From: Escherichia coli
GTDB lineage: Bacteria > Pseudomonadota > Gammaproteobacteria > Enterobacterales > Enterobacteriaceae
DNA: 13,768 bases
Reading direction: 5' to 3' (one strand)
Assembly (NCBI RefSeq): GCF_003334335.1
Contig: NZ_QOWQ01000061.1
Below the pieces are notes generated by a model, which was given only the letters and a program-made list of their open reading frames with translations, made no database searches and was not told the origin of the DNA. Numbering within the stretch: the stretch's first letter is position 1; each line of letters opens with the position of its first letter. This document shows, in pieces, positions 1-13,768 of this stretch. A program made the translations under genes and the position numbers.

Positions 1-71
1 TGGTTGATACTGTTTTTGTCATGTGAGTCACCTCTGACTGAGAGTTTACTCACTTAGCCGCGTGTCCACTA

Positions 72-431
72 TTGCTGGGTAAGATCAGTGCCTGGCACAC
101 GCGTTTGATGGAAGACGGCGTTCAGGCAATGCGCGATTATCTTGCCGGACTGGATATCGCTTCGCCAGAGCATCAGGTTCTGATGAACGTAACAGCAAAA
201 AGCGAGGTCGCTCCGTCAATTATCAAAGAAAATCTCTCATTACACTTAACTCATACGGTGAAATGGACTGAATCTCTCGATACATTTCTGAATATGCCAA
301 CCCCGGTAGCTTTCCTTGAAATAAGTAATAAGCCCTATTTGGGGAATATGTTAAATGATTTTGCTGGCGTGGATCAGCAACGAGTTATGCATTGTCGTAA
401 AGCATTTAGTGATGCAAAGGTATTCAAATGA
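72..431 (+). CDS. Malonyl-CoA:ACP transacylase (FabD)-like acyltransferase, C-terminal fragment only (possible truncated gene or pseudogene)
   Basis: Translation aligns by eye to the C-terminal third of E. coli FabD ([11 protein letters not shown]...HTVKWTESL vs FabD SAPFHCALMKP...PVQWTKSVEY). The frame has TGA stops at 24-26 and 39-41, so no full-length acyltransferase can be encoded here. ORF-track start is TTG at 72; first in-frame ATG is at 108; no clear SD for either. Stop overlaps the next start (ATGA at 428-431). Confidence 0.4.
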
Positions 432-1414
432 TTCCTGATTATTTAACTTTTATTCGCTTTCAGGATAAACGAAATCTGATATACATTTATGCTATTGGAC
501 TTATTCTGATAGGCTTTTATTGGAAGAATGCAGGGTTTACTTTTCCATCAGAGGATATTGGTGTAGTTAGTGGGATTCTGGCTCTGGTGCTGTATAATTT
601 TATTTTTGATCTCAAGGCGTACTGGGCTTATAAATGCGTCACGAAGAATATCGATTTTTCGTGGTTTAAGAAAAAGCAGAACCACAAAATAGAATTATTT
701 CTTACACAACCTCTGGTGGCAGGATTTCTGTCGTTAATCATGTTGAGTGCAATGAGTTGGGGGCTATACCAGCTTCTACCCTCGTTATATGCGCTGTTCC
801 TGATTTCGTTACTTGGGCCGTTGGTCATCTTTCTGCTGTTTCGGATGATCCGCACCAGTTATGTCAAGCAGGTCGCTATTTCAGTAGCGAAAAAAGTAAA
901 ATATAAAAGTCTGACTCGCTATGTGCTGCTTTCGGTGTGCATCTCAACGGTTGTTAACCTGCTTACTATCAGCCCGTTGCGTAACAGTGATTCTTTTGTG
1001 ACAGAGGGGCAGTGGTTAACGTTTAAATCGATAATTGCATTGCTCATTCTTTGTGGCGTAGTGTTGGCGATTAATCTGTTTTTTCTGCGCTTCTCCAAGC
1101 GGTACGCTTTTCTGGGCAGGCTTTTTTTGCAGGAAATCGATCTGTTTTTCTCCAGTGAAAATGCGTTGTCGACCTTTTTTGCCAAGCCGCTTTGGCTTCG
1201 GTTATTCATATTGCTGGTTATTGAAGTGATGTGGATTACGCTGGTGTCGGTATTGGCAACGCTTGTAGAATGGCGGATTTGGTTTGAAGCCTATTTTTTA
1301 CTCTGCTATGTACCGTGCTTAATTTACTATTTTTTCTATTGTCGATTCCTCTGGCATAACGATTTTATGATGGCATGTGACATGTATTTCCGTTGGGGGC
1401 ATTTTAATAAGTGA
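428..1414 (+). CDS. Polytopic integral membrane protein, function unknown
   Basis: 328-aa ORF with multiple long hydrophobic segments typical of transmembrane helices (e.g. [91 protein letters not shown]). Translationally coupled to the upstream ORF. Visibly AT-rich. No family recognised. Confidence 0.6.
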
Positions 1415-1573
1415 GGAAGTGATAGGAAGTGACCAGATAATACATATATGTTCTGTACTCTCTTGCGCATTTTGATTGTTGACTGAGTAACCAGACAGTT
1501 GATGTGCACGATTTCCCCTCGCCCTAACAGACGTGGGCGGGGGCACCCGGTGTGTGCAATATACGAAAAAAAA

Positions 1574-1601
1574 GCCCGTACTTTCGTACGAGCTCTTCTT
1601 T
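1574..1601. terminator. Hairpin flanked by an A8 run on one side and a T-rich run on the other; possible bidirectional intrinsic terminator
   Basis: Stem GCCCGTAC (1574-1581) / GTACGAGC (1586-1593) with one mismatch, loop TTTC, preceded by AAAAAAAA (1566-1573) and followed by TCTTCTTT. Read on the minus strand it is a hairpin followed by U8, the stronger terminator orientation. Confidence 0.4.
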
Positions 1602-1636
1602 AAATATGGCGGTGAGGGGGACCGCCTGAAATAAAT

Positions 1637-1664
1637 CTGACTTAATCCAGGGGTGTTATATAAT
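1637..1664 (+). promoter_or_regulatory. Candidate sigma70-like promoter upstream of the integrase gene
   Basis: -35-like CTGACT (1637-1642), 16-bp spacer, perfect -10 TATAAT (1659-1664), about 115 bp upstream of the int start. Sequence match only, no expression evidence. Confidence 0.25.
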
Positions 1665-1780
1665 TTCATTATAAACAATGTATTACACTTTTTGTTGTCC
1701 GATATTATCTAATGTATTCTTAGTGAAGCGAGAGACTAATGGCATACTGGATGGCATACCAGAGTGACGGGAATTAGCGT

Positions 1781-2983
1781 ATGGCAGTATTGACGGATAC
1801 GAAAGCAAGACATATCAAACCTGATGACAAACCATTGCCCCATGGGGGAATTACCGGACTGACCCTTCATCCTTCTTCAGTAAAGGGGCGGGGGAAATGG
1901 GTTTTTCGTTATGTAAGTCCGGTGACACAAAAAAGACGTAATGCTGGATTGGGAACTTACCCAGAGGTCAGTATTGCTGAAGCTGCACGTACTGCCCGGA
2001 TAATGCGAGAGCAACTTGCTGCAGGTGATGATCCTCTGGAGATTAAAAAGGCTGAATCTGAGAAAGTCGCTATCCCAACATTTGCCGATGCAGCCAGGCG
2101 TGTACATGCAGAACTGTCTCCTGGATGGGAAAATCCAAAGCATGTAAGGCAGTGGTTATCGACGCTTGAGAATTACGCGTTTCCTCAACTGGGAGCAAAA
2201 ACGCTGGATTCGATTACGGCTGCGGACGTGGCAGAAACACTGCGTCCAGTCTGGTTAACCTTGTCAGAAACGGCAAGCCGGGTTAAACAGCGCATTCATG
2301 TTGTTATGCAGTGGGGATGGGCGCACGGTTTTTGTGTAGCAAATCCTGTTGATGTGGTTGACCATTTGCTTCCTCAGCAGACAAGAGGACGTGATGAACA
2401 CCAACCCGCAATGCCCTGGAGGCAGTTACCGCTTTTTGTGGCGACCAGTGTGTATACCGATGAACCTTATAATGTTACCCGCGCACTGTTATTAATGGTG
2501 ATACTTACAGCAACTCGCTCGGGCGAAGCCAGGGGAATGCGCTGGGCTGAAATTGATTTTCATAAGCGGGTATGGACTATACCTGCAGAAAGAATGAAAG
2601 CTAGGCTACAGCATCGTGTTCCTTTATCCCGGCAGGCTATTTACATTCTGGAAAATATACGTGGCCTGCATGATGAACTGGTGTTCCCTTCACCCAGAAA
2701 GCAGCAGATCCTTTCCGATATGGTGTTGACAAGTTTTCTGCGTAAAAAGAAAGCCGTCAGTGACATTCCGGGGCGAGTTGCCACGGCACATGGTTTTCGC
2801 TCAACATTCAGGGACTGGTGTAGCGAACAGGGGTATTCGCGGGATCTGGCGGAAAGGGCGCTCGCTCATACGCTGAAAAATAAGGTTGAGGCGGCATATC
2901 ATCGTACTGATCTACTGGAGCAGCGTGTACCGATGATGCAGGCATGGGCGGATTATGTGATGTCTCAAATTGTGAATAAATAA
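1781..2983 (+). CDS. int: Tyrosine recombinase, P4-family (CP4-57 IntA-like) integrase
   Basis: 400-aa ORF. N-terminus has the typical P4-type integrase arm-binding region (LTDTKARHIKPDDKP...GKWVFRY...). C-terminus carries the catalytic signature (TRSGEARGMRWAEID, HGFRSTFRDW, catalytic Tyr in AAYHRTD). Family assignment from motif recognition, not a search. Confidence 0.93.
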   Translation: MAVLTDTKARHIKPDDKPLPHGGITGLTLHPSSVKGRGKWVFRYVSPVTQKRRNAGLGTYPEVSIAEAARTARIMREQLAAGDDPLEIKKAESEKVAIPTFADAARRVHAELSPGWENPKHVRQWLSTLENYAFPQLGAKTLDSITAADVAETLRPVWLTLSETASRVKQRIHVVMQWGWAHGFCVANPVDVVDHLLPQQTRGRDEHQPAMPWRQLPLFVATSVYTDEPYNVTRALLLMVILTATRSGEARGMRWAEIDFHKRVWTIPAERMKARLQHRVPLSRQAIYILENIRGLHDELVFPSPRKQQILSDMVLTSFLRKKKAVSDIPGRVATAHGFRSTFRDWCSEQGYSRDLAERALAHTLKNKVEAAYHRTDLLEQRVPMMQAWADYVMSQIVNK

Positions 2984-3114
2984 TAGTGAAAATGTATATT
3001 GTACGATCATGATTTGATATGTGATCGTAGCAGTAGTAATTAAGAAACCGCTTTTATGTCAAATGTATTGAGCTGATAATTATCAGATCGTCAGGAAAGC
3101 GTATTTTGATTAAC

Positions 3115-3142
3115 AGGGGATTACTTAACAATCCCCTTTTTA
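3115..3142 (+). terminator. Rho-independent terminator-like hairpin in the int / 605-aa gene convergent intergenic region
   Basis: Stem AGGGGATT (3115-3122) / AATCCCCT (3130-3137), 7-nt loop, followed by TTTTT (3137-3141). Lies between the convergent int (+) and 605-aa (-) genes. Confidence 0.5.
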
Positions 3143-3169
3143 TAAAAAATAATTTGCCTGTTTAACTCT

Positions 3170-4987
3170 TCACTCCTGCTGAGACTGAATTATTCCTAGT
3201 GCGTCATAAATCAGTCTTCTGCGTAGTTTATTGTTTTTATCTGCACCATATAACATAAATATATTTTCAACTTTTTCTTCAGGTGTTCTGAGATAATGGA
3301 TAAGAAAGGTTATCATTCCAACACAATGGAATAAAGTGAATCCATCAAACAGGCTTATCAGGTTTCCTTTTTTTTCCCGTGTTGTAAGTATTTTTTCGCG
3401 GGTAAGAATATTTGCCAGTTCATGGGGGGCTGATATGTTTCTGCTGTCTATAATGTCATTTATTTTACCAAGGGCTATATCAACTTCCTGTAATAGGTTA
3501 TTTATCATAGCTGAGTGAATGTTATTGGTTTCATGTTCCTGACAGTTTATGAACTTATAAATCATTGAGTTATACAGAAATATTACTCTTCCTAATAAAT
3601 ATGTGTTTGTGTCATTTTGAAGACAGGACTCTGGGTATTCGTGATCCAGTGAAATAAGGTTAATGGACTCGCCCTGATAAGTCATAAAATAATTGATGTC
3701 ATTTAATAATGCTCGGATATTTACATGATTTTTACTGAATTTTATTTTAAATGCTATCTTTAGTATAGCAAACGCGGCAATGATAAATCCAAAAGGTAAT
3801 TTCTCATAGTTCAGTTTATTGATGGTGCGATGAACACTTTCAGTCTTTCCTGAAGTAAGTTGTCTCAAACAGTTAACAAATTCTGTATAGCCATTTAAGA
3901 CATAATGGCATGAAGAATCTTTTAAAGAGTTTTCTATGTTTTGTAATGTGACGCCGTTGTTCAATGTATAAATGTAACCGCCAAAGACAATGTTTTCAAT
4001 CTCAACGACACAATTTATTGTTTTTTGTTCAGGATAAAGATAAATATCAGAAATACTATAGTCTCGTATTGCGTCAATGGCATCCCACGATAATGCACTG
4101 TCAATTTTCAGTGTATAAAATGGTGAGTTCTCATTAGGAAAGTAATATATGTATTTGTTCAGTATATTCATTACATCTATTGGGTTGGTTAAATATAATA
4201 ACTGGCATTCATATTCTGAAACTTCTCTTTCGCTTATCAGCATTTTATATAAAGTTGCCAGGGTGCTTGTTAATGAAGTTCGTCTTTCGAAAGCCAGTAA
4301 TATAGTGAGATAATAACATGCAACCTGAACTTTATCTAAGTCAGAAATTATTTTTTCCTTGTCTTCATTACTTAAATAAAGCAGATGTTTACAGGTTTCT
4401 TTGCATGTGTTGATAGTTGCGATAAGTTTTGTTTTTCCTGGTGTACTGTTTTTGCGAATATTACGAATGAATTCATATACGCCATCAAAGATATCTTTGA
4501 AATGCGCATTCGCTGGCGTGTATCCGGATAAACATAACTTAACGTAATTTCGCAGATATGTCCTTGCAGCATGATATATATCATCCTCATTATCCGGTAT
4601 CTGAGTGAGAAAAGAATGAATATGATAGTAAAATGCCATCTCATTATCCGGGCGATATGTGTTCCTGATGTCGAGTGCGAGAATCATTGGTACAATGTCA
4701 TTAAAATATTTTTGTTTTATTATTTGATGTGTTTTGTCTGTAAAAACAGAATAGTGCATTAGCTTAACATAGAGATCTTCATATCTCCTAAATATAACTT
4801 TTCGTTGTTCTTTACTCAATACTTGTTCTTTATCAATAATGTTTATTAATTCATCAAACATGTCGCCCAGTGAATGTTGATGTGAGGAAAAATTTTTAAT
4901 ATTTCGGATGTCACGGCTATTCTGGTTTTTAGCCAGAACACCAAAACATGAAAAGACATCATACATTATAGTGATAAAATTATACAT
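3170..4987 (-). CDS. Hypothetical protein, 605 aa, no recognisable family; AT-rich orphan cargo gene
   Basis: Long uninterrupted minus-strand ORF. Strong SD (AAGGAGA) 5 nt upstream of the ATG at 4987 (minus-strand sense). Codon usage markedly more AT-rich than int or the 1083-aa gene (by eye). One predicted hydrophobic helix (KLPFGFIIAAFAILKIAFKI). I recognise no catalytic motif. Confidence 0.8.
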   Translation of the reverse strand: MYNFITIMYDVFSCFGVLAKNQNSRDIRNIKNFSSHQHSLGDMFDELINIIDKEQVLSKEQRKVIFRRYEDLYVKLMHYSVFTDKTHQIIKQKYFNDIVPMILALDIRNTYRPDNEMAFYYHIHSFLTQIPDNEDDIYHAARTYLRNYVKLCLSGYTPANAHFKDIFDGVYEFIRNIRKNSTPGKTKLIATINTCKETCKHLLYLSNEDKEKIISDLDKVQVACYYLTILLAFERRTSLTSTLATLYKMLISEREVSEYECQLLYLTNPIDVMNILNKYIYYFPNENSPFYTLKIDSALSWDAIDAIRDYSISDIYLYPEQKTINCVVEIENIVFGGYIYTLNNGVTLQNIENSLKDSSCHYVLNGYTEFVNCLRQLTSGKTESVHRTINKLNYEKLPFGFIIAAFAILKIAFKIKFSKNHVNIRALLNDINYFMTYQGESINLISLDHEYPESCLQNDTNTYLLGRVIFLYNSMIYKFINCQEHETNNIHSAMINNLLQEVDIALGKINDIIDSRNISAPHELANILTREKILTTREKKGNLISLFDGFTLFHCVGMITFLIHYLRTPEEKVENIFMLYGADKNNKLRRRLIYDALGIIQSQQE

Positions 4988-5127
4988 AACATTCTCCTTT
5001 TATTGCACTATATAAAATTTTAACATTATATCATTTTGCTTTTCTGTTAACTGGTTTTCATTTTTGAATCAATATTTTCTGAACAGGGTAATAGTACACG
5101 TATTAACAGATTATGTCAGAAGGCCCC

Positions 5128-5890
5128 GGTGATGCCTTCTGACGATAGATTAATGTTGTATTCTATTGGTATCTGGAGACCATATGGCAACAGTTACAGT
5201 ATATTCTCCCCGCTGTAATTCCTATAAAGTGTACCGTTATGATCACAGCACCTCAGATCATGAGCGTTTCCAGTGCTAATCCTGCAAACGTGTATTTCAA
5301 CTGAATTACATCTACGAAACCCGAAAACCAGGCATTAAAGAGCAAATTGTTGAAATGGTTCATAACGGAGCCGGGGTTCGCGATAGCTCCAGAACGCTGA
5401 AGGTGGATATCAACACCGTCATTCTCACTTTAAAAAACGCTCACCACGTAAAGTAACCATATCTCCAGCCGCCAGTGTCGATGTGGCACTTATCTGTGAA
5501 CTTGATGAACAATGGAGTTTTGTCGAAAACAAAGCTCGTCAGCAGTGGCACTGGTACGCGTATAAGACCAAAGCTGACGGTGTGCTGGCTTACACTTTTG
5601 GTCCTCGCACTGATGAAACATGCCGTGAGTTGCCGGAATTCCTGAAGCCATTCTCCGCAGGCATGATAACCAGAGACAACCGGAGCAGTTATACCAGAGA
5701 AATGCCACAGGATAAGCATCTTGTCGGCAAGATATTTACCCGGCGCATTGAGCGCAACAATCTGACACTTCGTACTCACATCAAACGACCTGCCCGGAAA
5801 ACGATTTGCTTTTTACGCTCCCTGGAAATTCACGAAAAGCCATTGGTTCATTTATCGAAAACACATGTACTACTGACAGGAGTCATTACC
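5128..5890 (+). mobile_element. IS1-family insertion sequence, about 763 bp, probably inactive
   Basis: Left end GGTGATGCC... at 5128 and right end ...GGAGTCATTACC at 5879-5890 match IS1 terminal inverted repeats. Internal insA/insB-like ORFs with the conserved A6C frameshift motif (5432-5438). Element length matches IS1 (768 bp). No clean 9-bp target-site duplication seen. Confidence 0.8.
5184..5456 (+). pseudogene. insA: IS1-family insA with an in-frame premature stop
   Basis: Translation MATVTVYSPRCNSYKVYRYDHSTSDHERFQC*SCKRVFQLNYIYETRKPGIKEQIVEMVHNGAGVRDSSRTLKVDINTVILTLKNAHHVK aligns to IS1 InsA, but an in-frame TAA at 5277-5279 falls inside the zinc-finger region. Confidence 0.75.
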
Positions 5891-5920
5891 AGGGCCTCTT
5901 TTGCTGTTTTTTTGCCATGA
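5483..5920 (+). CDS. insB: IS1-family InsB-like transposase segment; reading frame runs past the right inverted repeat
   Basis: Translation (ICELDEQWSFVENKARQQWHWYAYK...TRRIERNNLTLRTHIKRPARK...) aligns to IS1 InsB ([26 protein letters not shown]...[21 protein letters not shown]). Frame is -1 relative to insA, as in IS1. The ORF continues 30 nt beyond the IS end at 5890, so the native stop appears lost. Confidence 0.7.
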   Translation: MALICELDEQWSFVENKARQQWHWYAYKTKADGVLAYTFGPRTDETCRELPEFLKPFSAGMITRDNRSSYTREMPQDKHLVGKIFTRRIERNNLTLRTHIKRPARKTICFLRSLEIHEKPLVHLSKTHVLLTGVITRASFAVFLP

Positions 5921-6086
5921 ATGATAATGAGAATCGACAGCGATAAGGGAAAAGTAAAATAACACTAATGCTGTTGTTTTCTATCATATTGATTTTTAAT
6001 TATTTATTGTCTTTTTTCTCAACCCATTTTTTTACGCAGACAAATTTACCCGGGGAATACAAACTGTAACGACAGTTCACCACACT

Positions 6087-6395
6087 ATGGGGGATAAAAT
6101 GCCAGATCAATCCGGACACTGCAGGACTCCTTCACGCATCTTACGGATGCCTGAACTGAGCCAATTGTTAGGTATATCTCGTTCGACAATTTACGAAAAA
6201 ATGAATCCGTTATCGAAATACTACGATGCAACCTTCCCCAGGCCGGTACGTCTTGGTAGTGGTTCTGTGGGCTGGCGTTCATCAGCTATTGACGAATGGC
6301 TTACTTTACATACTGTACCTGCCAGATCAGCAGTCAAAGGTGTTAATGACGAAGTGAGACATACGCTTTCTTCAGATATGACCATGAGCAGATAA
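6087..6395 (+). CDS. alpA: AlpA-family (prophage CP4-57 regulatory protein-like) DNA-binding regulator / excisionase-like protein
   Basis: Motifs ILRMPELSQLLGISRSTIYEKMNP and YDATFPRPVRLGSGSVGWRSSAIDEWL match the AlpA helix-turn-helix family. The likely true start is the ATG at 6099, preceded by GGGGGA. Confidence 0.85.
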   Translation: MGDKMPDQSGHCRTPSRILRMPELSQLLGISRSTIYEKMNPLSKYYDATFPRPVRLGSGSVGWRSSAIDEWLTLHTVPARSAVKGVNDEVRHTLSSDMTMSR

Positions 6396-6477
6396 GTTTT
6401 TGTCATCACGTGATCACCTCAGGAGGAAAAAGAAGCATAAGAACAATTTAGCCAGAAGTTTAATTGATAAACAGAAT

Positions 6478-6830
6478 TTCCAGCATTCATTGTTGAAAGA
6501 GCAGCTATTGTCGCTATTGTAGCGGTAATTGCTGCTATAACCGAAACGTATTACGAAAAAGGAAGCATTTATGCCTTACATCAAACCGGATATGCCGTAT
6601 TCAGTATATGCATGACCATCAATGATAGGGAAGGCAATAATTAAAGCTCAATACAATAAACAAGTACCTCTGACTCTGGTTGCAATGTCAGTATTAACAG
6701 CGATGTCAATTGCCTGTCAGAATCAGGTTGACGTATGCAGTCCCGGAAATTTACGTGGGGCCGTTAATATTTACACTATGGTTCTGGAGAAAGGGAAAAG
6801 ACCGGGGGAAAGGTATTAGTGAAATAATTT
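6478..6830 (+). repeat. Direct repeat copy 1: diverged duplicate of the promoter-proximal and 5' coding region of the yfjI-like gene
   Basis: Aligns by eye over about 330 bp with 6958-7310, including the shared motif AGCAGCTATTGTCGCTATTGTAGCGG and the coding stretch CAATTGCCTGTCAGAATCAG(G/A)TTGACGTATGCAG. I estimate roughly 75-80% identity (not computed). Confidence 0.7.
6571..6819 (+). pseudogene. Degenerate duplicated 5' fragment of the yfjI-like gene
   Basis: ATG at 6571 gives MPYIKPDMPYSVYA* and then, after a 1-nt indel relative to copy 2, a second frame (6622-6819) encodes ...QVPLTLVAMSVLTAMSIACQNQVDVCSPGNLRGAVNIYT, paralogous to QAPLAMVATSALTAISIACQNQIDVCRPGNLHGPVNLYS of the intact gene. 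Confidence 0.55.
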
Positions 6831-6957
6831 CTGGAGGTATTAAGAATGAGAAATATGAATGATATTTCGTGGTGAATAATACAGTCTTCACTGAATTAAC
6901 CTTATCGGTTTATTAAACATCAGATCTACAAATGCTCTGTATTTCTCAGAGCATCAG

Positions 6958-7310
6958 GTCTGAATAGCAGCTATTTTCGCTATTGTAGCGGGATTTGCTG
7001 CTATTTTACTAACCCATTAATGAAAAGAGAGGCTTTTATGTGCTTACTTGCACCAGAAAATCCTTATCCGATATATGCACTACCACCGCTGGTGAGAAAT
7101 GCAATAATTGAAACTCAAAAAAATACACAGGCACCTTTGGCTATGGTGGCAACATCCGCATTAACAGCGATCTCAATTGCCTGTCAGAATCAGATTGACG
7201 TATGCAGACCTGGAAATTTACATGGGCCTGTTAATCTTTACTCTCTGATTCTGGCTGATTCCGGTGAAAGGAAAACGACCGTGGATAAAGTGTTTATGAA
7301 AGCATTTTAT
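6958..7310 (+). repeat. Direct repeat copy 2: the intact promoter-proximal and 5' region of the yfjI-like gene
   Basis: Partner of copy 1 at 6478-6830; this copy is continuous with the long ORF starting at 7020/7038. Confidence 0.7.
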
Positions 7311-8177
7311 CTCAGGGATGAAGCCCTGGCGGAAGAATACGCGAAACTGGTTGAGAATTACAGTACAGAAAAGGAAATATGGGAGCAAAAACAAAAAGCG
7401 CTGGAATCAAAATTTCATAAAGAGATTCGTGCCGGTAAAGATTACAAGGCAACAGAATCAGAGCTTGAAACGCATCTGAATAAACCTCCTGTTCCGCCGC
7501 AGATACGTCGAACAATTTTTAATGAGACAACGATAGAGGGAATGTTAAAATATTACTCCGATAGCAATCGCTCTTTTGCTCTTGTATCCAGTGAAGGGGG
7601 GGTAATTTTTGACAGCCGGGCCATGAGTAAACTGGGAATTATTAACACTTTGTGGGATGGAGGTTCTCTTTTCATCGACAGGAAATCATCTCCCGGAATT
7701 AATTTGAAGGAGCCAAGACTGACGATATCGGTGATGATTCAGCCTGATGTTTACCACAAAGGTTTTTGTACGCGAAAAAAAGAAATTGTGAAAACGTCAG
7801 GACATCATGCAAGGTTTTTGATGTGTCAACCAACATCAACGCAGGGGACAAGGATAATAACCGGAGATAATTATTCATCACAGTATCAGGATTTGTTTGA
7901 AGAGAGGATCAATGAGCTTATTGATGAAAGTCTGGCGATGAGTGGTGAACGACGTTGCCTTCACTTTTCTCCTCAGGCTGCCAGAATCTGGACGGATTAT
8001 TACAATGATGTGGAATCGAAGCTGGGGGGATTGGGGCCTTTAAGACATTGCCGGGAATATGCTGCTAAAAATGCAGAGTATATGGCAAGACTGGCAGGAC
8101 TTATTTACCATTCGAGCGGGGGAGATTTCCCCTTACACTGCAGAAATGGCGAGAGAATTAGCAATATGGTACGGTAA
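7020..8177 (+). CDS. yfjI-like (DUF3987-type, putative replication-associated) protein, N-terminal 385 aa; frame interrupted near the 3' end
   Basis: Long ORF in the position occupied by yfjI after alpA in CP4-57-type islands. SD-like AAGAGAGG precedes the internal ATG at 7038, the more likely start. The reading frame continues in another frame (8059-8463) after a G5 tract. DUF3987 assignment is from genomic context and memory, not a search. Confidence 0.7.
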   Translation: MKREAFMCLLAPENPYPIYALPPLVRNAIIETQKNTQAPLAMVATSALTAISIACQNQIDVCRPGNLHGPVNLYSLILADSGERKTTVDKVFMKAFYLRDEALAEEYAKLVENYSTEKEIWEQKQKALESKFHKEIRAGKDYKATESELETHLNKPPVPPQIRRTIFNETTIEGMLKYYSDSNRSFALVSSEGGVIFDSRAMSKLGIINTLWDGGSLFIDRKSSPGINLKEPRLTISVMIQPDVYHKGFCTRKKEIVKTSGHHARFLMCQPTSTQGTRIITGDNYSSQYQDLFEERINELIDESLAMSGERRCLHFSPQAARIWTDYYNDVESKLGGLGPLRHCREYAAKNAEYMARLAGLIYHSSGGDFPLHCRNGERISNMVR

Positions 8178-8463
8178 TGAGTATGTGCGGTTGTCTAATC
8201 CGTTAACTTTTGACAACTCTGCCCTGACCGTACCTGTGCGACTCATTCCAGAGGAGCTTGAACTTTTCAACTGGATAAAAAGCTATTGTATTGAGAAGGG
8301 GATCCTCTGTATGAAAAAAAATGACATTTTACAGCGTGGTCCGAACCGTTTCCGGAAAAAGGATAAAATCAACTGGTTACTGGATTTACTGTATGAACAA
8401 AACAGAGTTGTACCGGTTATTGAGGGAAAAACGTTGTGTGTCGCACCTAACTTTGACCTCTGA
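8059..8463 (+). CDS. C-terminal segment of the yfjI-like protein in a shifted frame
   Basis: Overlaps the previous ORF by 119 nt in a different frame; no independent RBS. Combined length (about 480 aa) is what I expect for a yfjI-family protein. Confidence 0.55.
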   Translation: MLLKMQSIWQDWQDLFTIRAGEISPYTAEMARELAIWYGNEYVRLSNPLTFDNSALTVPVRLIPEELELFNWIKSYCIEKGILCMKKNDILQRGPNRFRKKDKINWLLDLLYEQNRVVPVIEGKTLCVAPNFDL

Positions 8464-8486
8464 ACGACTTAATCGTTGAGTTCATA

Positions 8487-8517
8487 TAGTCTCCTCTGCT
8501 ACTTGCGGAGGAGACTA
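8487..8517 (+). terminator. Perfect 10-bp stem-loop immediately downstream of the yfjI-like gene; possible terminator or protein-binding hairpin
   Basis: TAGTCTCCTC (8487-8496) pairs with GAGGAGACTA (8508-8517), 11-nt loop. Downstream sequence is only moderately T-rich, so it is not a canonical intrinsic terminator. Confidence 0.35.
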
Positions 8518-8518
8518 A

Positions 8519-9283
8519 TGTCTTTACCATGTCAGCGTTGTATTAGAAAACTCTGGTACAGGTCAGTCAGTAAATATAACTGGTGTAACCACTATTTACT
8601 ATTGGATAGAGTGTTGCTCAGGATATTGTCGGCTTTAGTCTGAGGTGAGGTGGGGCCTTCATTGTTTTCGTGTTCAATAAATAATTTAGGTTAATTAGTA
8701 TTATTAGTGGAAGTTATGTGATCTGTTATGTTGTCTTGTACGCACTTAACACTGGTTACGTACCGGAACACTATTAGAGTATGTTATGGCTCTGTTACAG
8801 TTTATAGGTATGAAAAAATATAATCTTTCCTGTATGAAATAATATTCTTATGGTGTGTGGGGTATGGTCTGTATACCATCATTTTTATGGTGAAGTTAAA
8901 TATCTGTAGAGGCCTTAAGCTGGGTCGCTGTTTTTACTTAATGGTACAGAAGTATTAATAGCGGTGTTGCCTGTGGCTACCCGATACTGGCTTTTGTGAA
9001 TGTCAGATTACTTCCTGTAAGTGATTGAATGGTACTTCCTTAAACTCAATTCTATGAGGTGTGTTTTTACCATTGTAATTCGTACTGGTCCTCAGTTTAA
9101 GTGAGTCTTACTGTACTCTGAAATATTACCTCTTTGGAGTAATGAGGTAATACGAAACAGTTTTATCAGGTTGTCTGTGCTGCTGGTTACCTCGTTTATT
9201 AATGCCGCGGTACGGCGTTTCTGTACTCTCAGTATTTATGTAATTCCACCTTCCTGTAACTTTTATAAAGTAAGGACTATAAA
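8519..9283. other. ORF-free AT-rich region with short repeated motifs and hairpins; candidate replication origin / regulatory region
   Basis: No ORF of 60 aa or more in any frame across about 820 bp. Repeated TTCCTGTA (8826, 9012, 9250), CTGTACTCT (9111, 9221), TGTTATG (8715, 8725, 8782). Inverted repeat TATTACCTC/GAGGTAATA (9124-9151). Sits directly upstream of the HUH Rep-like gene. Confidence 0.3.
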
Positions 9284-9847
9284 ATGTATAATGCTAATCC
9301 CAATTACGAAATGGACTTCATGATTCTGAAAGACGTGAATGAACACATGGAAGGTCTGTTTCAACGTTTTTCTAAACTGTTACCTTTCAGAATTGATTTT
9401 GCCTACAGGAAAGACACGCCCAGTTTTGGTCATTCCTGTAGGCACAGTATGTGTATTGAAATGCACCGCTTACTTAGTGAAACCCAAACGATGCTGGCGG
9501 GATATTACTGGGTAATGGAATATACGTCAAACAAGGGACTTCATATTCATTTTATCGGCTACTTGGATGGGCAACGTCACAAGAAATTTTATCGGATATC
9601 CAGGCAACTGGGAGATATCTGGAGTCGGATCACGGAAGGGGAGGGTTATTTTCACCTGTGCAGTACTAAAGACAAATACCCGGTGCGTATCGATCACGTG
9701 ATTCACTATAGTGATAAGTCTGCGGTAGACGGTTTACGTTACGCCCTTAGCTACCTGGCTAAACAGGAGCAGAAAGAACACGGTATTATTCTGATGCGTA
9801 GCAGACTTCCCGAAAAAAGTAACCGCGGCCGACCACGACACAACTGA
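9284..9847 (+). CDS. YagK/YfjJ (inovirus Gp2)-family protein with HUH-type motifs; putative rolling-circle Rep-like initiator
   Basis: 187-aa ORF with an HUH-like motif LHIHFIGY and a downstream tyrosine motif YALSYLAK (YxxK-like). Occupies the position of yfjJ in CP4-57-like islands. Shorter than I would expect for this family. Confidence 0.65.
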   Translation: MYNANPNYEMDFMILKDVNEHMEGLFQRFSKLLPFRIDFAYRKDTPSFGHSCRHSMCIEMHRLLSETQTMLAGYYWVMEYTSNKGLHIHFIGYLDGQRHKKFYRISRQLGDIWSRITEGEGYFHLCSTKDKYPVRIDHVIHYSDKSAVDGLRYALSYLAKQEQKEHGIILMRSRLPEKSNRGRPRHN

Positions 9848-10355
9848 ATTACAGCTGTATTAGAATTAAGTTTCCGTAAGTTGTTGGGAGGTGCTTGAGT
9901 TAATAGGCAGTAGAGGGGGCGCTGTAATCAGTGTAGGGGACCCGAATTTCTGCTGTGGTGCTTCAGTGGTTCGGATACAGGTAACGAATATGGTTCATAA
10001 ATCTGACAGTGATGAATTAGCAGCACTGAGGGAAGACATCACTTGAAGCTTATGGGATTGAATGGCGACGTAAACCGCAGAGTCCTGTGCAGTGCGTTTC
10101 CGTATTATCCACGGATGAGAAAGTTGCGTTATTTCGTCGGTTTTTTCGTGGGCGTGGTGATGTATGGGGCCTTCGATGGGAAAGCAAAACCAGCGGCAAA
10201 TCAGGGTACTTGCGGGCCTGTGCTAACGAATGGCAGCCGGGAATAGCGGTAAACTCCGGATAAAATGTGGGGACTGCGCTCACCGTCAGTTGATCCCTGT
10301 ATCTGATCTCATCATCTACCACTACACGGTTTAACGGGGCCGCGTCATCTCGGCG

Positions 10356-10385
10356 TTGCCCGATAAATTCTTTTCTACGTATAAT
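10356..10385 (+). promoter_or_regulatory. Candidate sigma70-like promoter for the 1083-aa gene
   Basis: -35-like TTGCCC (10356-10361), 18-bp spacer, perfect -10 TATAAT (10380-10385), about 110 bp upstream of the start codon. Sequence match only. Confidence 0.3.
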
Positions 10386-10497
10386 AACCAGAATGAACGT
10401 GTAAAACACCATAGTATTCAGAACTATAAACATCGAAACTTGCCATATTGACCAGAATAAATGACCTTATTTTTACTGAAATTTAAGGAGAACACCG

Positions 10498-13768
<3,271 letters not shown>

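Follow-up and report, generated by a model that had tools for sequence, protein, structure and literature searches.

A gene divergent from alpA in an Escherichia coli island belongs to an undescribed protein family and to the backbone of CP4-57/SRL-type integrative islands

What is the AT-rich gene that lies between the integrase gene and alpA at the left end of an Escherichia coli island? The window analysed here, a stretch of 13,768 nucleotides from contig NZ_QOWQ01000061.1, holds at 3170-4987 on the minus strand an open reading frame (ORF) of 605 codons, for which we use X as a working label. A sequence-only reading of the same window had described this gene as an orphan, acquired separately from its neighbours, and as a candidate for cargo or defence. 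In this study, the position of the gene, its relatives, its alleles, and its predicted structure were examined. X proved to be a backbone gene of its class of islands and a member of a protein family of its own; what the protein does is addressed below with graded confidence, our tentative preference being a role in the control module around alpA.

Position and family of X

The ORF call and the translation agreed on an open frame of 605 residues with an ATG start, and a Shine-Dalgarno (SD) sequence, AAGGAG, was located 7-8 nucleotides 5' of the start codon (region 4999-4985). X is convergent with the integrase gene int and is placed between int and alpA (Table 1). The GC content of X was 0.325 (0.30 at third codon positions, GC3), as compared with 0.490 for int, 0.455 for alpA, and 0.417 for the window. 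At the composition of X, the chance of 605 stop-free codons is approximately 1e-21. All of these features had been read correctly from the sequence, including the higher AT content relative to the flanking genes.

The gene order was examined at 17 independent remote loci with DNA retrieved, namely those of P0023, P0025, P0026, P0028, P0030, and P0034, that of the 866-residue P0051, eight genome loci, and those of P0054 and P0055, the weakest matches. In all 17, the X relative and alpA (PF05930) were divergent, with a gap of approximately 100 bp between them. Next after alpA came the DUF3987 gene (yfjI) and then usually, where the DNA reached that far, a YagK/YfjJ-type gene. The position of X relative to int varied: in most remote islands int lies beyond yfjJ or beside yfjI and X faces away, whereas the module in the window is reversed and X faces int. 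The conserved neighbour of X is thus alpA and not int.

The genes on the other side of X were different from island to island. Type I restriction-modification (RM) was found beyond X in L004, a GAP1/DO-GTPase/SLATT system in L012, Hachiman HamB with PDC-S06 in L026, type III RM in L029, and Mokosh MkoA/MkoB in L033. L039 had no cargo at this position; the DUF932-YqaJ-RadC backbone followed directly, and X was flanked on both sides by backbone genes. Since the cargo beyond X varies while X stays, X is a constant at the inner border of the cargo and is not itself cargo, contrary to the first designation. These arrangements show that X is a backbone gene of CP4-57/SRL-type integrative islands, and its homologues do recur in islands with P4-type integrases and defence genes.

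In each of an initial set of seven loci, no gene of the module had a lower GC content than X, which lay 3-13 points under the genes around it; in seven further loci X was well below the locus average. X was therefore the most AT-rich gene of its module in the 14 loci measured, which indicates that AT-richness is a trait of the family and not, as had been supposed, a sign of separate acquisition.

Close copies of X are frequent in E. coli. At an identity of at least 99%, X was present in 1035 of the 1040 matching records, corresponding to 1037 of the 5426 complete E. coli genomes; the carriers include O157:H7 and uropathogenic E. coli (UPEC), and approximately 93% of a spread sample of the E. 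coli copies were full length. A word-indexed search gave copies at an identity of at least 91%, in E. coli only. An exhaustive HMMER search of 1.84 billion cluster representatives returned 34 matches, approximately 15 of them full length (570-660 residues, 28-35% identity), and the E values of the full-length relatives ranged from 1e-30 to 1e-71 across the full length. Further loci, in Kluyvera, Pseudescherichia, Xenorhabdus, Edwardsiella, Morganella, Providencia, and Enterobacter, came from a pattern scan of 100,044 species genomes. Taking the HMMER search and the genome scan together, the full-length relatives share 25-38% identity and occur in many Enterobacterales. The term orphan consequently holds for the close copies but not for the family, whose members are intact across genera.

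The family alignment contained the blocks NFSxHQ, YKYEQLYN, ALDI, LPxGYL..A..I..ALKIKL, NNxTIMR..xLYN, and TLYNC. Few polar columns were near-invariant, and the invariant or near-invariant columns were mostly hydrophobic. No catalytic set, NTPase motif, or nuclease motif was recognisable in this alignment.

A model of X was built with AlphaFold2 on a 17-sequence alignment. It had a mean predicted local distance difference test (pLDDT) score of 83.5 and a predicted template modelling (pTM) score of 0.84, with approximately 30 helices and no strands. Foldseek against AFDB50 returned uncharacterised proteins of the same family only, with template modelling scores (TM-scores) of 0.8-0.9, from Leclercia, Pantoea, Hafnia, Salmonella, Shigella, Providencia, Proteus, and Edwardsiella and, more distantly, Aeromonas and Burkholderia. 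Nothing was found in BFVD at E <= 0.001, and the model had neither a solved structural neighbour nor an enzyme-like one in these searches. Structure prediction thus gave a confident all-alpha model, but the neighbours that it brought were uncharacterised members of the same family. Taken together, the full-length homology, the shared fold, and the position divergent from alpA-DUF3987 provide good support for X belonging to an undescribed family of its own.

No significant match to X was obtained in Pfam, NCBIfam, PADLOC, PHROGs, or the PDB sequences, in agreement with the initial failure to assign a domain. With the defence-protein hidden Markov models of PADLOC-DB v2, which include the PDC candidate (guilt-by-association) families, no family matched at E <= 1, whereas the same tool strongly matched neighbouring cargo genes of related loci. 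The C-terminal GerE/LuxR helix-turn-helix (HTH) domain (PF00196) gave no match in X even at E <= 10. No publication on the X protein was found.

Two candidate identities were rejected. Some E. coli fragments are named integral membrane protein in UniProt; however, a conserved transmembrane segment was not found. X has one hydrophobic helix, 397-417, with a 19-residue Kyte-Doolittle maximum of 2.0 as compared with 1.3-1.8 in relatives; its counterparts in some relatives contain R or D, and the grand average of hydropathy (GRAVY) was negative throughout. Given this inconsistent hydrophobicity and the negative GRAVY, X is likely to be soluble. The second candidate, a HEPN-type all-alpha ribonuclease, was discarded because X has no Rx4-6H motif; its sole R..H pair (R28-x7-H36) is misspaced, and the His is replaced in homologues.

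Three observations concern the most distant or unusual relatives. P0051 (L024:2467-5067) is a distant relative of 866 residues, divergent from alpA-DUF3987, with an N-terminal extension of approximately 300 residues. The extension matched the IS481 transposase profile NF033577 with an E value of 2.5e-11, far below the curated cut-off, over an HTH and the beginning of the catalytic core. It resembles a DNA-binding module that has been domesticated, and the HTH piece is a weak hint of DNA-associated action. The islands of the most distant relatives carry their own H-NS paralogue just after yfjJ (L037:2399-2800 and L038:202-603), which may be relevant to silencing of AT-rich genes. Finally, a contig of 3.2 kb labelled 'Bacillota bacterium MAG' (L030, JAEWTL010000133.1) contains yfjI-alpA-X with 93% protein identity to the enterobacterial L008 and is probably mis-binned.

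Allele exchange and the upstream region

When X was compared with the 94%-identical allele of L020, the ratio of non-synonymous to synonymous substitution rates (dN/dS) was 0.18, based on 55 synonymous and 44 non-synonymous changes, and that of int in the same pair was 0.05. Four other pairs gave values of 0.26-0.34 for X. X is under purifying selection, which is weaker than that on int. These values and the predominance of full-length copies uphold the first impression that the gene is intact and not decaying. Among E. coli copies at least 99% identical, the corresponding ratio of polymorphisms (pN/pS) was near 1, on very few substitutions.

One-nucleotide deletions were observed exactly at the A8GG or C6 tract of X in the independent alleles of L020, L022, and strain FP4, and copies of 1817 nucleotides accounted for 3 of the 59 E. 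coli copies sampled. They could reflect sequencing error, early decay, or slippage-based switching.

Next to its conserved position, X showed a high turnover of alleles. Among 13 loci, X was less conserved than AlpA in all 78 pairs, and the identity of X correlated with that of AlpA (Spearman 0.85), YfjI (0.74), and YfjJ (0.75), as compared with 0.17 for Int. X was the most divergent gene of the core. L004 and L026 share 81% identity in X and 92% in AlpA but 33% in YfjI. Between L012 and L031, AlpA, YfjI, and YfjJ were 92-93% identical but X only 39%, and the synonymous divergence was 1.8 in X versus 0.14-0.29 in the neighbours. Such divergence within a constant backbone indicates that the X allele was replaced by recombination.

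The exchange also involved alpA. The alpA-yfjI type of the window was present in 1025 E. coli genomes, and X in 1031. In approximately 375 further genomes yfjI was 88-95% identical at the nucleotide level, with homology starting only approximately 100 bp after alpA. The sister E. coli islands at other sites (L034:3729-6049, L035, and L036) have unrelated hypothetical proteins of 545 and 198 residues in the slot of X, and their AlpA is only 27% identical to the window type. Since yfjI is closely similar while the slot gene and AlpA differ, the slot gene and alpA move as a cassette. The slot proteins of the sister islands are a second uncharacterised slot family; neither they nor YfjH, which is described below, matched PADLOC or NCBIfam. 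At the same ycdU site, the E. coli islands L005-L007 have a 96%-identical integrase together with a YfjI of 27%, an AlpA of 80%, and an X relative (P0026) of 33% identity, in the opposite module orientation. The same integrase with a different module indicates that the integrase and the X-alpA-yfjI module recombine independently.

In 14 remote loci, the start codon of X is immediately preceded by a block of approximately 45 nucleotides, CTGnnAnAnTGTCCnCGTAnAAAAnnGGAAACCAACnGGAG. It contains an extended -10-like element and an SD sequence, with two GGA motifs, one of them within the SD sequence, and it is conserved across genera more strongly than the X protein. RNAalifold found no shared RNA structure in the block, and its conservation is therefore more likely to lie at the level of DNA or linear sequence.

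In the window, the short control region between X and alpA is interrupted by a copy of insertion sequence IS1, and only the first half of the block is left (Table 1). From this half to X, the sequence runs through an AT-rich stretch of approximately 150 bp, then the IS1 copy, and then 140 bp that include the TGATATAAT element. The promoter scan upstream of X gave matches at the consensus level only, in AT-rich DNA, and the TGATATAAT site is accordingly described as putative. The IS1-family element had been recognised in the sequence-only reading, together with a possible effect on the expression of X. The element itself was confirmed; it is annotated as a RefSeq pseudogene in O157, UTI89, ABU 83972, AH20E044, and FP4. 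In L020, the locus of the 94% allele, IS1 is colinear as well, with 90% identity, and hence predates the split from that allele. The remnant is old and fixed in this E. coli lineage, and the supposed effect was not supported: selection on X has continued since, and X is presumably still expressed.

Possible functions of X

The nearest known systems offer likenesses in arrangement rather than in sequence. Stl of the Staphylococcus aureus pathogenicity islands (SaPIs) is a master repressor of approximately 250-280 residues with an N-terminal HTH; its gene and the excision/replication operon diverge from a short control region. Stl is highly divergent between similar SaPIs, reflecting the recognition of different helper-phage proteins. 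X is also divergent across a short shared control region (approximately 100 bp, with the 45-nucleotide block) and is also hyperdivergent; however, it is approximately 600 residues long, an HTH was not detected in it, and it resembles Stl in neither sequence nor structure.

In the PIME1 integrative mobilizable elements, a luxR-family gene is divergent from alpA, and both are required for excision and replication (bioRxiv 10.64898/2026.01.12.698999). X is likewise back-to-back with alpA in an int/alpA island carrying defence cargo, but it lacks a LuxR/GerE domain, and the X islands have DUF3987/Gp2-like replication genes and no tra/trb genes. Helical sensors of the RRNPP/TPR type (NprR; the TorS sensor bundle) were also counted among the nearest known systems.

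In CP4-57 of K-12, yfjH occupies the slot of X, between intA and alpA on the opposite strand and upstream of yfjI-yfjJ, in agreement with the sequence-only reading of the window. YfjH is uncharacterised, as is X; however, it has only 318 residues and no homology to X (hhalign probability 0.06), and the AlpA that accompanies it shares only 41-52% identity with the AlpAs linked to X. The SRL island of Shigella flexneri has the order int-orf2(YfjI-like)-orf3(rox)-orf4, which is that of L005-L007 with P0026 at the same chromosomal site. Its rox product is an AlpA-like excision factor, and the adjoining orf4, labelled 'no similarity', is uncharacterised; by gene order, orf4 is a candidate that probably belongs to the X family. 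A divergent gene paired with an excision regulator is a logic known from other islands, whereas the X protein and its fold are new.

Because the position and evolution of X resemble those of Stl and of the luxR-family gene of PIME1, with the HTH of P0051 as a further hint, we lean, at somewhat below even confidence, towards X being part of the alpA control module of the island, in which it would confer specificity or act as a sensor without being an enzyme. Being all-helical in the model and without a catalytic signature, X probably acts by binding. It would be made from the compact shared control region next to alpA and would restrain or license the alpA-driven excision-replication programme. 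This control would last until X encounters a factor supplied by a phage or plasmid that arrives as a helper or competitor. The logic would be that of Stl or of the LuxR-type alpA partner of PIME1, performed by an unrelated fold.

Several results weigh against a sensor of the alpA module. No DNA-binding or HTH domain was detected in the canonical X proteins. X is swapped while AlpA stays 93% identical, which speaks against tight co-adaptation of the two, and the correlation of their identities may come from physical linkage only. Furthermore, X is intact where yfjI is broken, as in the window, and where IS1 cuts off the ancestral control region; in such immobile-looking islands, decay would be the expectation for a gene that does nothing but regulate the island. 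Finally, the parallels with PIME1 and Stl are analogies and not homology.

A broader proposal, which we put forward with less confidence still, is that the X family forms a new class of hypervariable non-enzymatic sensors, with a fold that lacks any solved relative, and that these set the 'immunity type' of CP4-57/SRL-type defence islands. Such sensors would couple the recognition of phage or plasmid proteins to alpA-driven induction or to direct exclusion, with alleles maintained and shuffled by frequency-dependent selection. Approximately one fifth of complete E. coli genomes carry an island of the X-bearing family; the tellurite/adherence islands of O157:H7 belong to it, as do islands of UPEC strains, and related islands across Enterobacterales bear many different defence systems. 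Within them, X is the sole conserved core gene without an assigned function or fold, placed at the control region and on the edge of the cargo hotspot, and its allele turnover is typical of proteins facing phages or plasmids. The partner of X, once found, would show how islands of the alpA/DUF3987/Gp2 type sense helpers or would add a structurally new defence protein. The X-alpA junction is also a practical landmark for locating defence cargo.

A serious rival, though in our view a less likely one, is that X is instead a stand-alone anti-phage or exclusion protein in the island backbone, i.e., a constitutive non-enzymatic blocker or a trigger of abortive infection whose alleles recognise different phages. 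Divergent alleles exchanged by recombination within identical backbones, the direct contact with defence cargo, and the low GC content typical of conflict genes would all suit such a protein, as would the maintenance of X under purifying selection in approximately 19% of E. coli genomes even when the replication genes of the island are broken. However, no PADLOC model matched, PDC candidate families included, and X lacks an effector-type domain, conserved catalytic residues, and a consistent transmembrane segment. Unlike known defence genes, X is moreover always present in one fixed place, next to a single AlpA clade, amid a turnover of the true cargo; it does not have the patchy occurrence of hotspot genes, and only its allele varies. 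The early description as a defence gene was thus not substantiated, and it is the high allele turnover that leaves defence possible.

A role in transfer or maintenance of the island is unlikely. X might in this case assist replication by YfjI/YfjJ, stabilise the island, or, as happens in phage satellites, hijack or interfere with a helper. Strict linkage to the alpA-yfjI-yfjJ module is in line with this role, and phages or plasmids mobilise related islands of the int/alpA/Gp2-like kind (PMC12595487; bioRxiv 10.64898/2026.01.12.698999). Yet X is transcribed away from the replication operon, is exchanged along with alpA and not with yfjI, lacks NTPase and nuclease motifs, and is kept where yfjI is a pseudogene.

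Independently acquired cargo, dropped between int and alpA and unrelated to the island core, is a very improbable origin. The GC content of X, 16 points below that of int, and the unrelated genes in the same slot in CP4-57 (yfjH) and other E. coli islands could be taken in this sense, but the conserved synteny already contradicts it: in many genera, family members with 25-38% identity stand in one and the same place with respect to alpA, low GC is common to all of them, and X and alpA travel together. That X is a silenced or decaying remnant without function can practically be dismissed, since the homopolymer frameshifts in some alleles, the split genes in L027, L028, and L033, and the pN/pS near 1 are outweighed by the long open frame at 32% GC, the dN/dS of 0.18-0.34 on well-sampled pairs, the full-length relatives across genera, and the confident fold prediction.

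The remainder of the window

The window is the left end of an island that is integrated into the E. coli chromosome beside ycdU, with dgcT and the pga operon as neighbours. The genes in it are, in order, int, X on the opposite strand, the IS1 remnant, alpA, yfjI, and yfjJ, followed by a remnant of a TOTE primase gene and a 1652-residue AAA protein with a 478-residue partner. The unit int-X-IS1-alpA-yfjI opens the O157:H7 island beside ycdU, is present in UTI89 and ABU 83972, and was also found at a second site, adjoining clpA.

Table 1 Features of the window that bear on X and its module.
Feature	Position	Strand	Description
Gene X	3170-4987	(-)	605-residue protein, predicted all-alpha, of an undescribed family; RefSeq WP_000282209/WP_000282206, 'hypothetical protein'
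A8GG homopolymer tract in X	3366-3375	(-)	One-nucleotide deletions cut the last ~65 residues in several alleles
C6 tract in X	3424-3429	(-)	Second site of one-nucleotide deletions
Proximal upstream region of X	4985-5127	(-)	SD sequence AAGGAG (4999-4994) and putative TGATATAAT extended -10-like site (5033-5025), as read from the sequence
IS1 copy	5128-5890		763 bp; both terminal inverted repeats (ends 5128, 5879-5890); transposase frameshifted with an internal stop; separates X from alpA
Surviving first half of the X promoter/leader block (GGTAAATTTGTCTGCGTAAAAAAATGG)	6024-6050	(-)	Beside alpA, pointing towards X
int	1781-2983	(+)	P4-type tyrosine integrase; convergent with X
GC-rich hairpin followed by a T-run	3115-3137	(+)	Between the stop codons of int and X; terminator-like for int
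alpA	6099-6395	(+)	Phage_AlpA-type HTH; divergent partner of X; RefSeq annotation; PF05930 on partners in remote loci
yfjI (DUF3987)	7020-8463	(+)	Frameshifted by an 8-bp deletion near 8117; split ORFs
yfjJ	9284-9847	(+)	Inovirus-type Gp2-like protein; third gene of the conserved module; PF11726 in remote loci

The deletion in yfjI was recognised by comparison with the intact copy of 477 residues in L002 (strain MDP9-27), and two ORFs result from it. The island in the window strain is probably replication-defective owing to this frameshift.

Islands with this type of integrase are usually described as tRNA-associated. ARAGORN found no tRNA gene in the window (1-13768); if there is an intact tRNA gene, it must be located at the opposite end of the island.

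At 10498-13749, running off the end of the window, the N-terminal part of the AAA-domain protein is encoded; in complete copies the 478-residue hypothetical protein follows. The remnant of the TOTE conflict-system primase gene was located at 10043-10433, just upstream of this ORF, and the region comprising both is presumably the real cargo of the island here.

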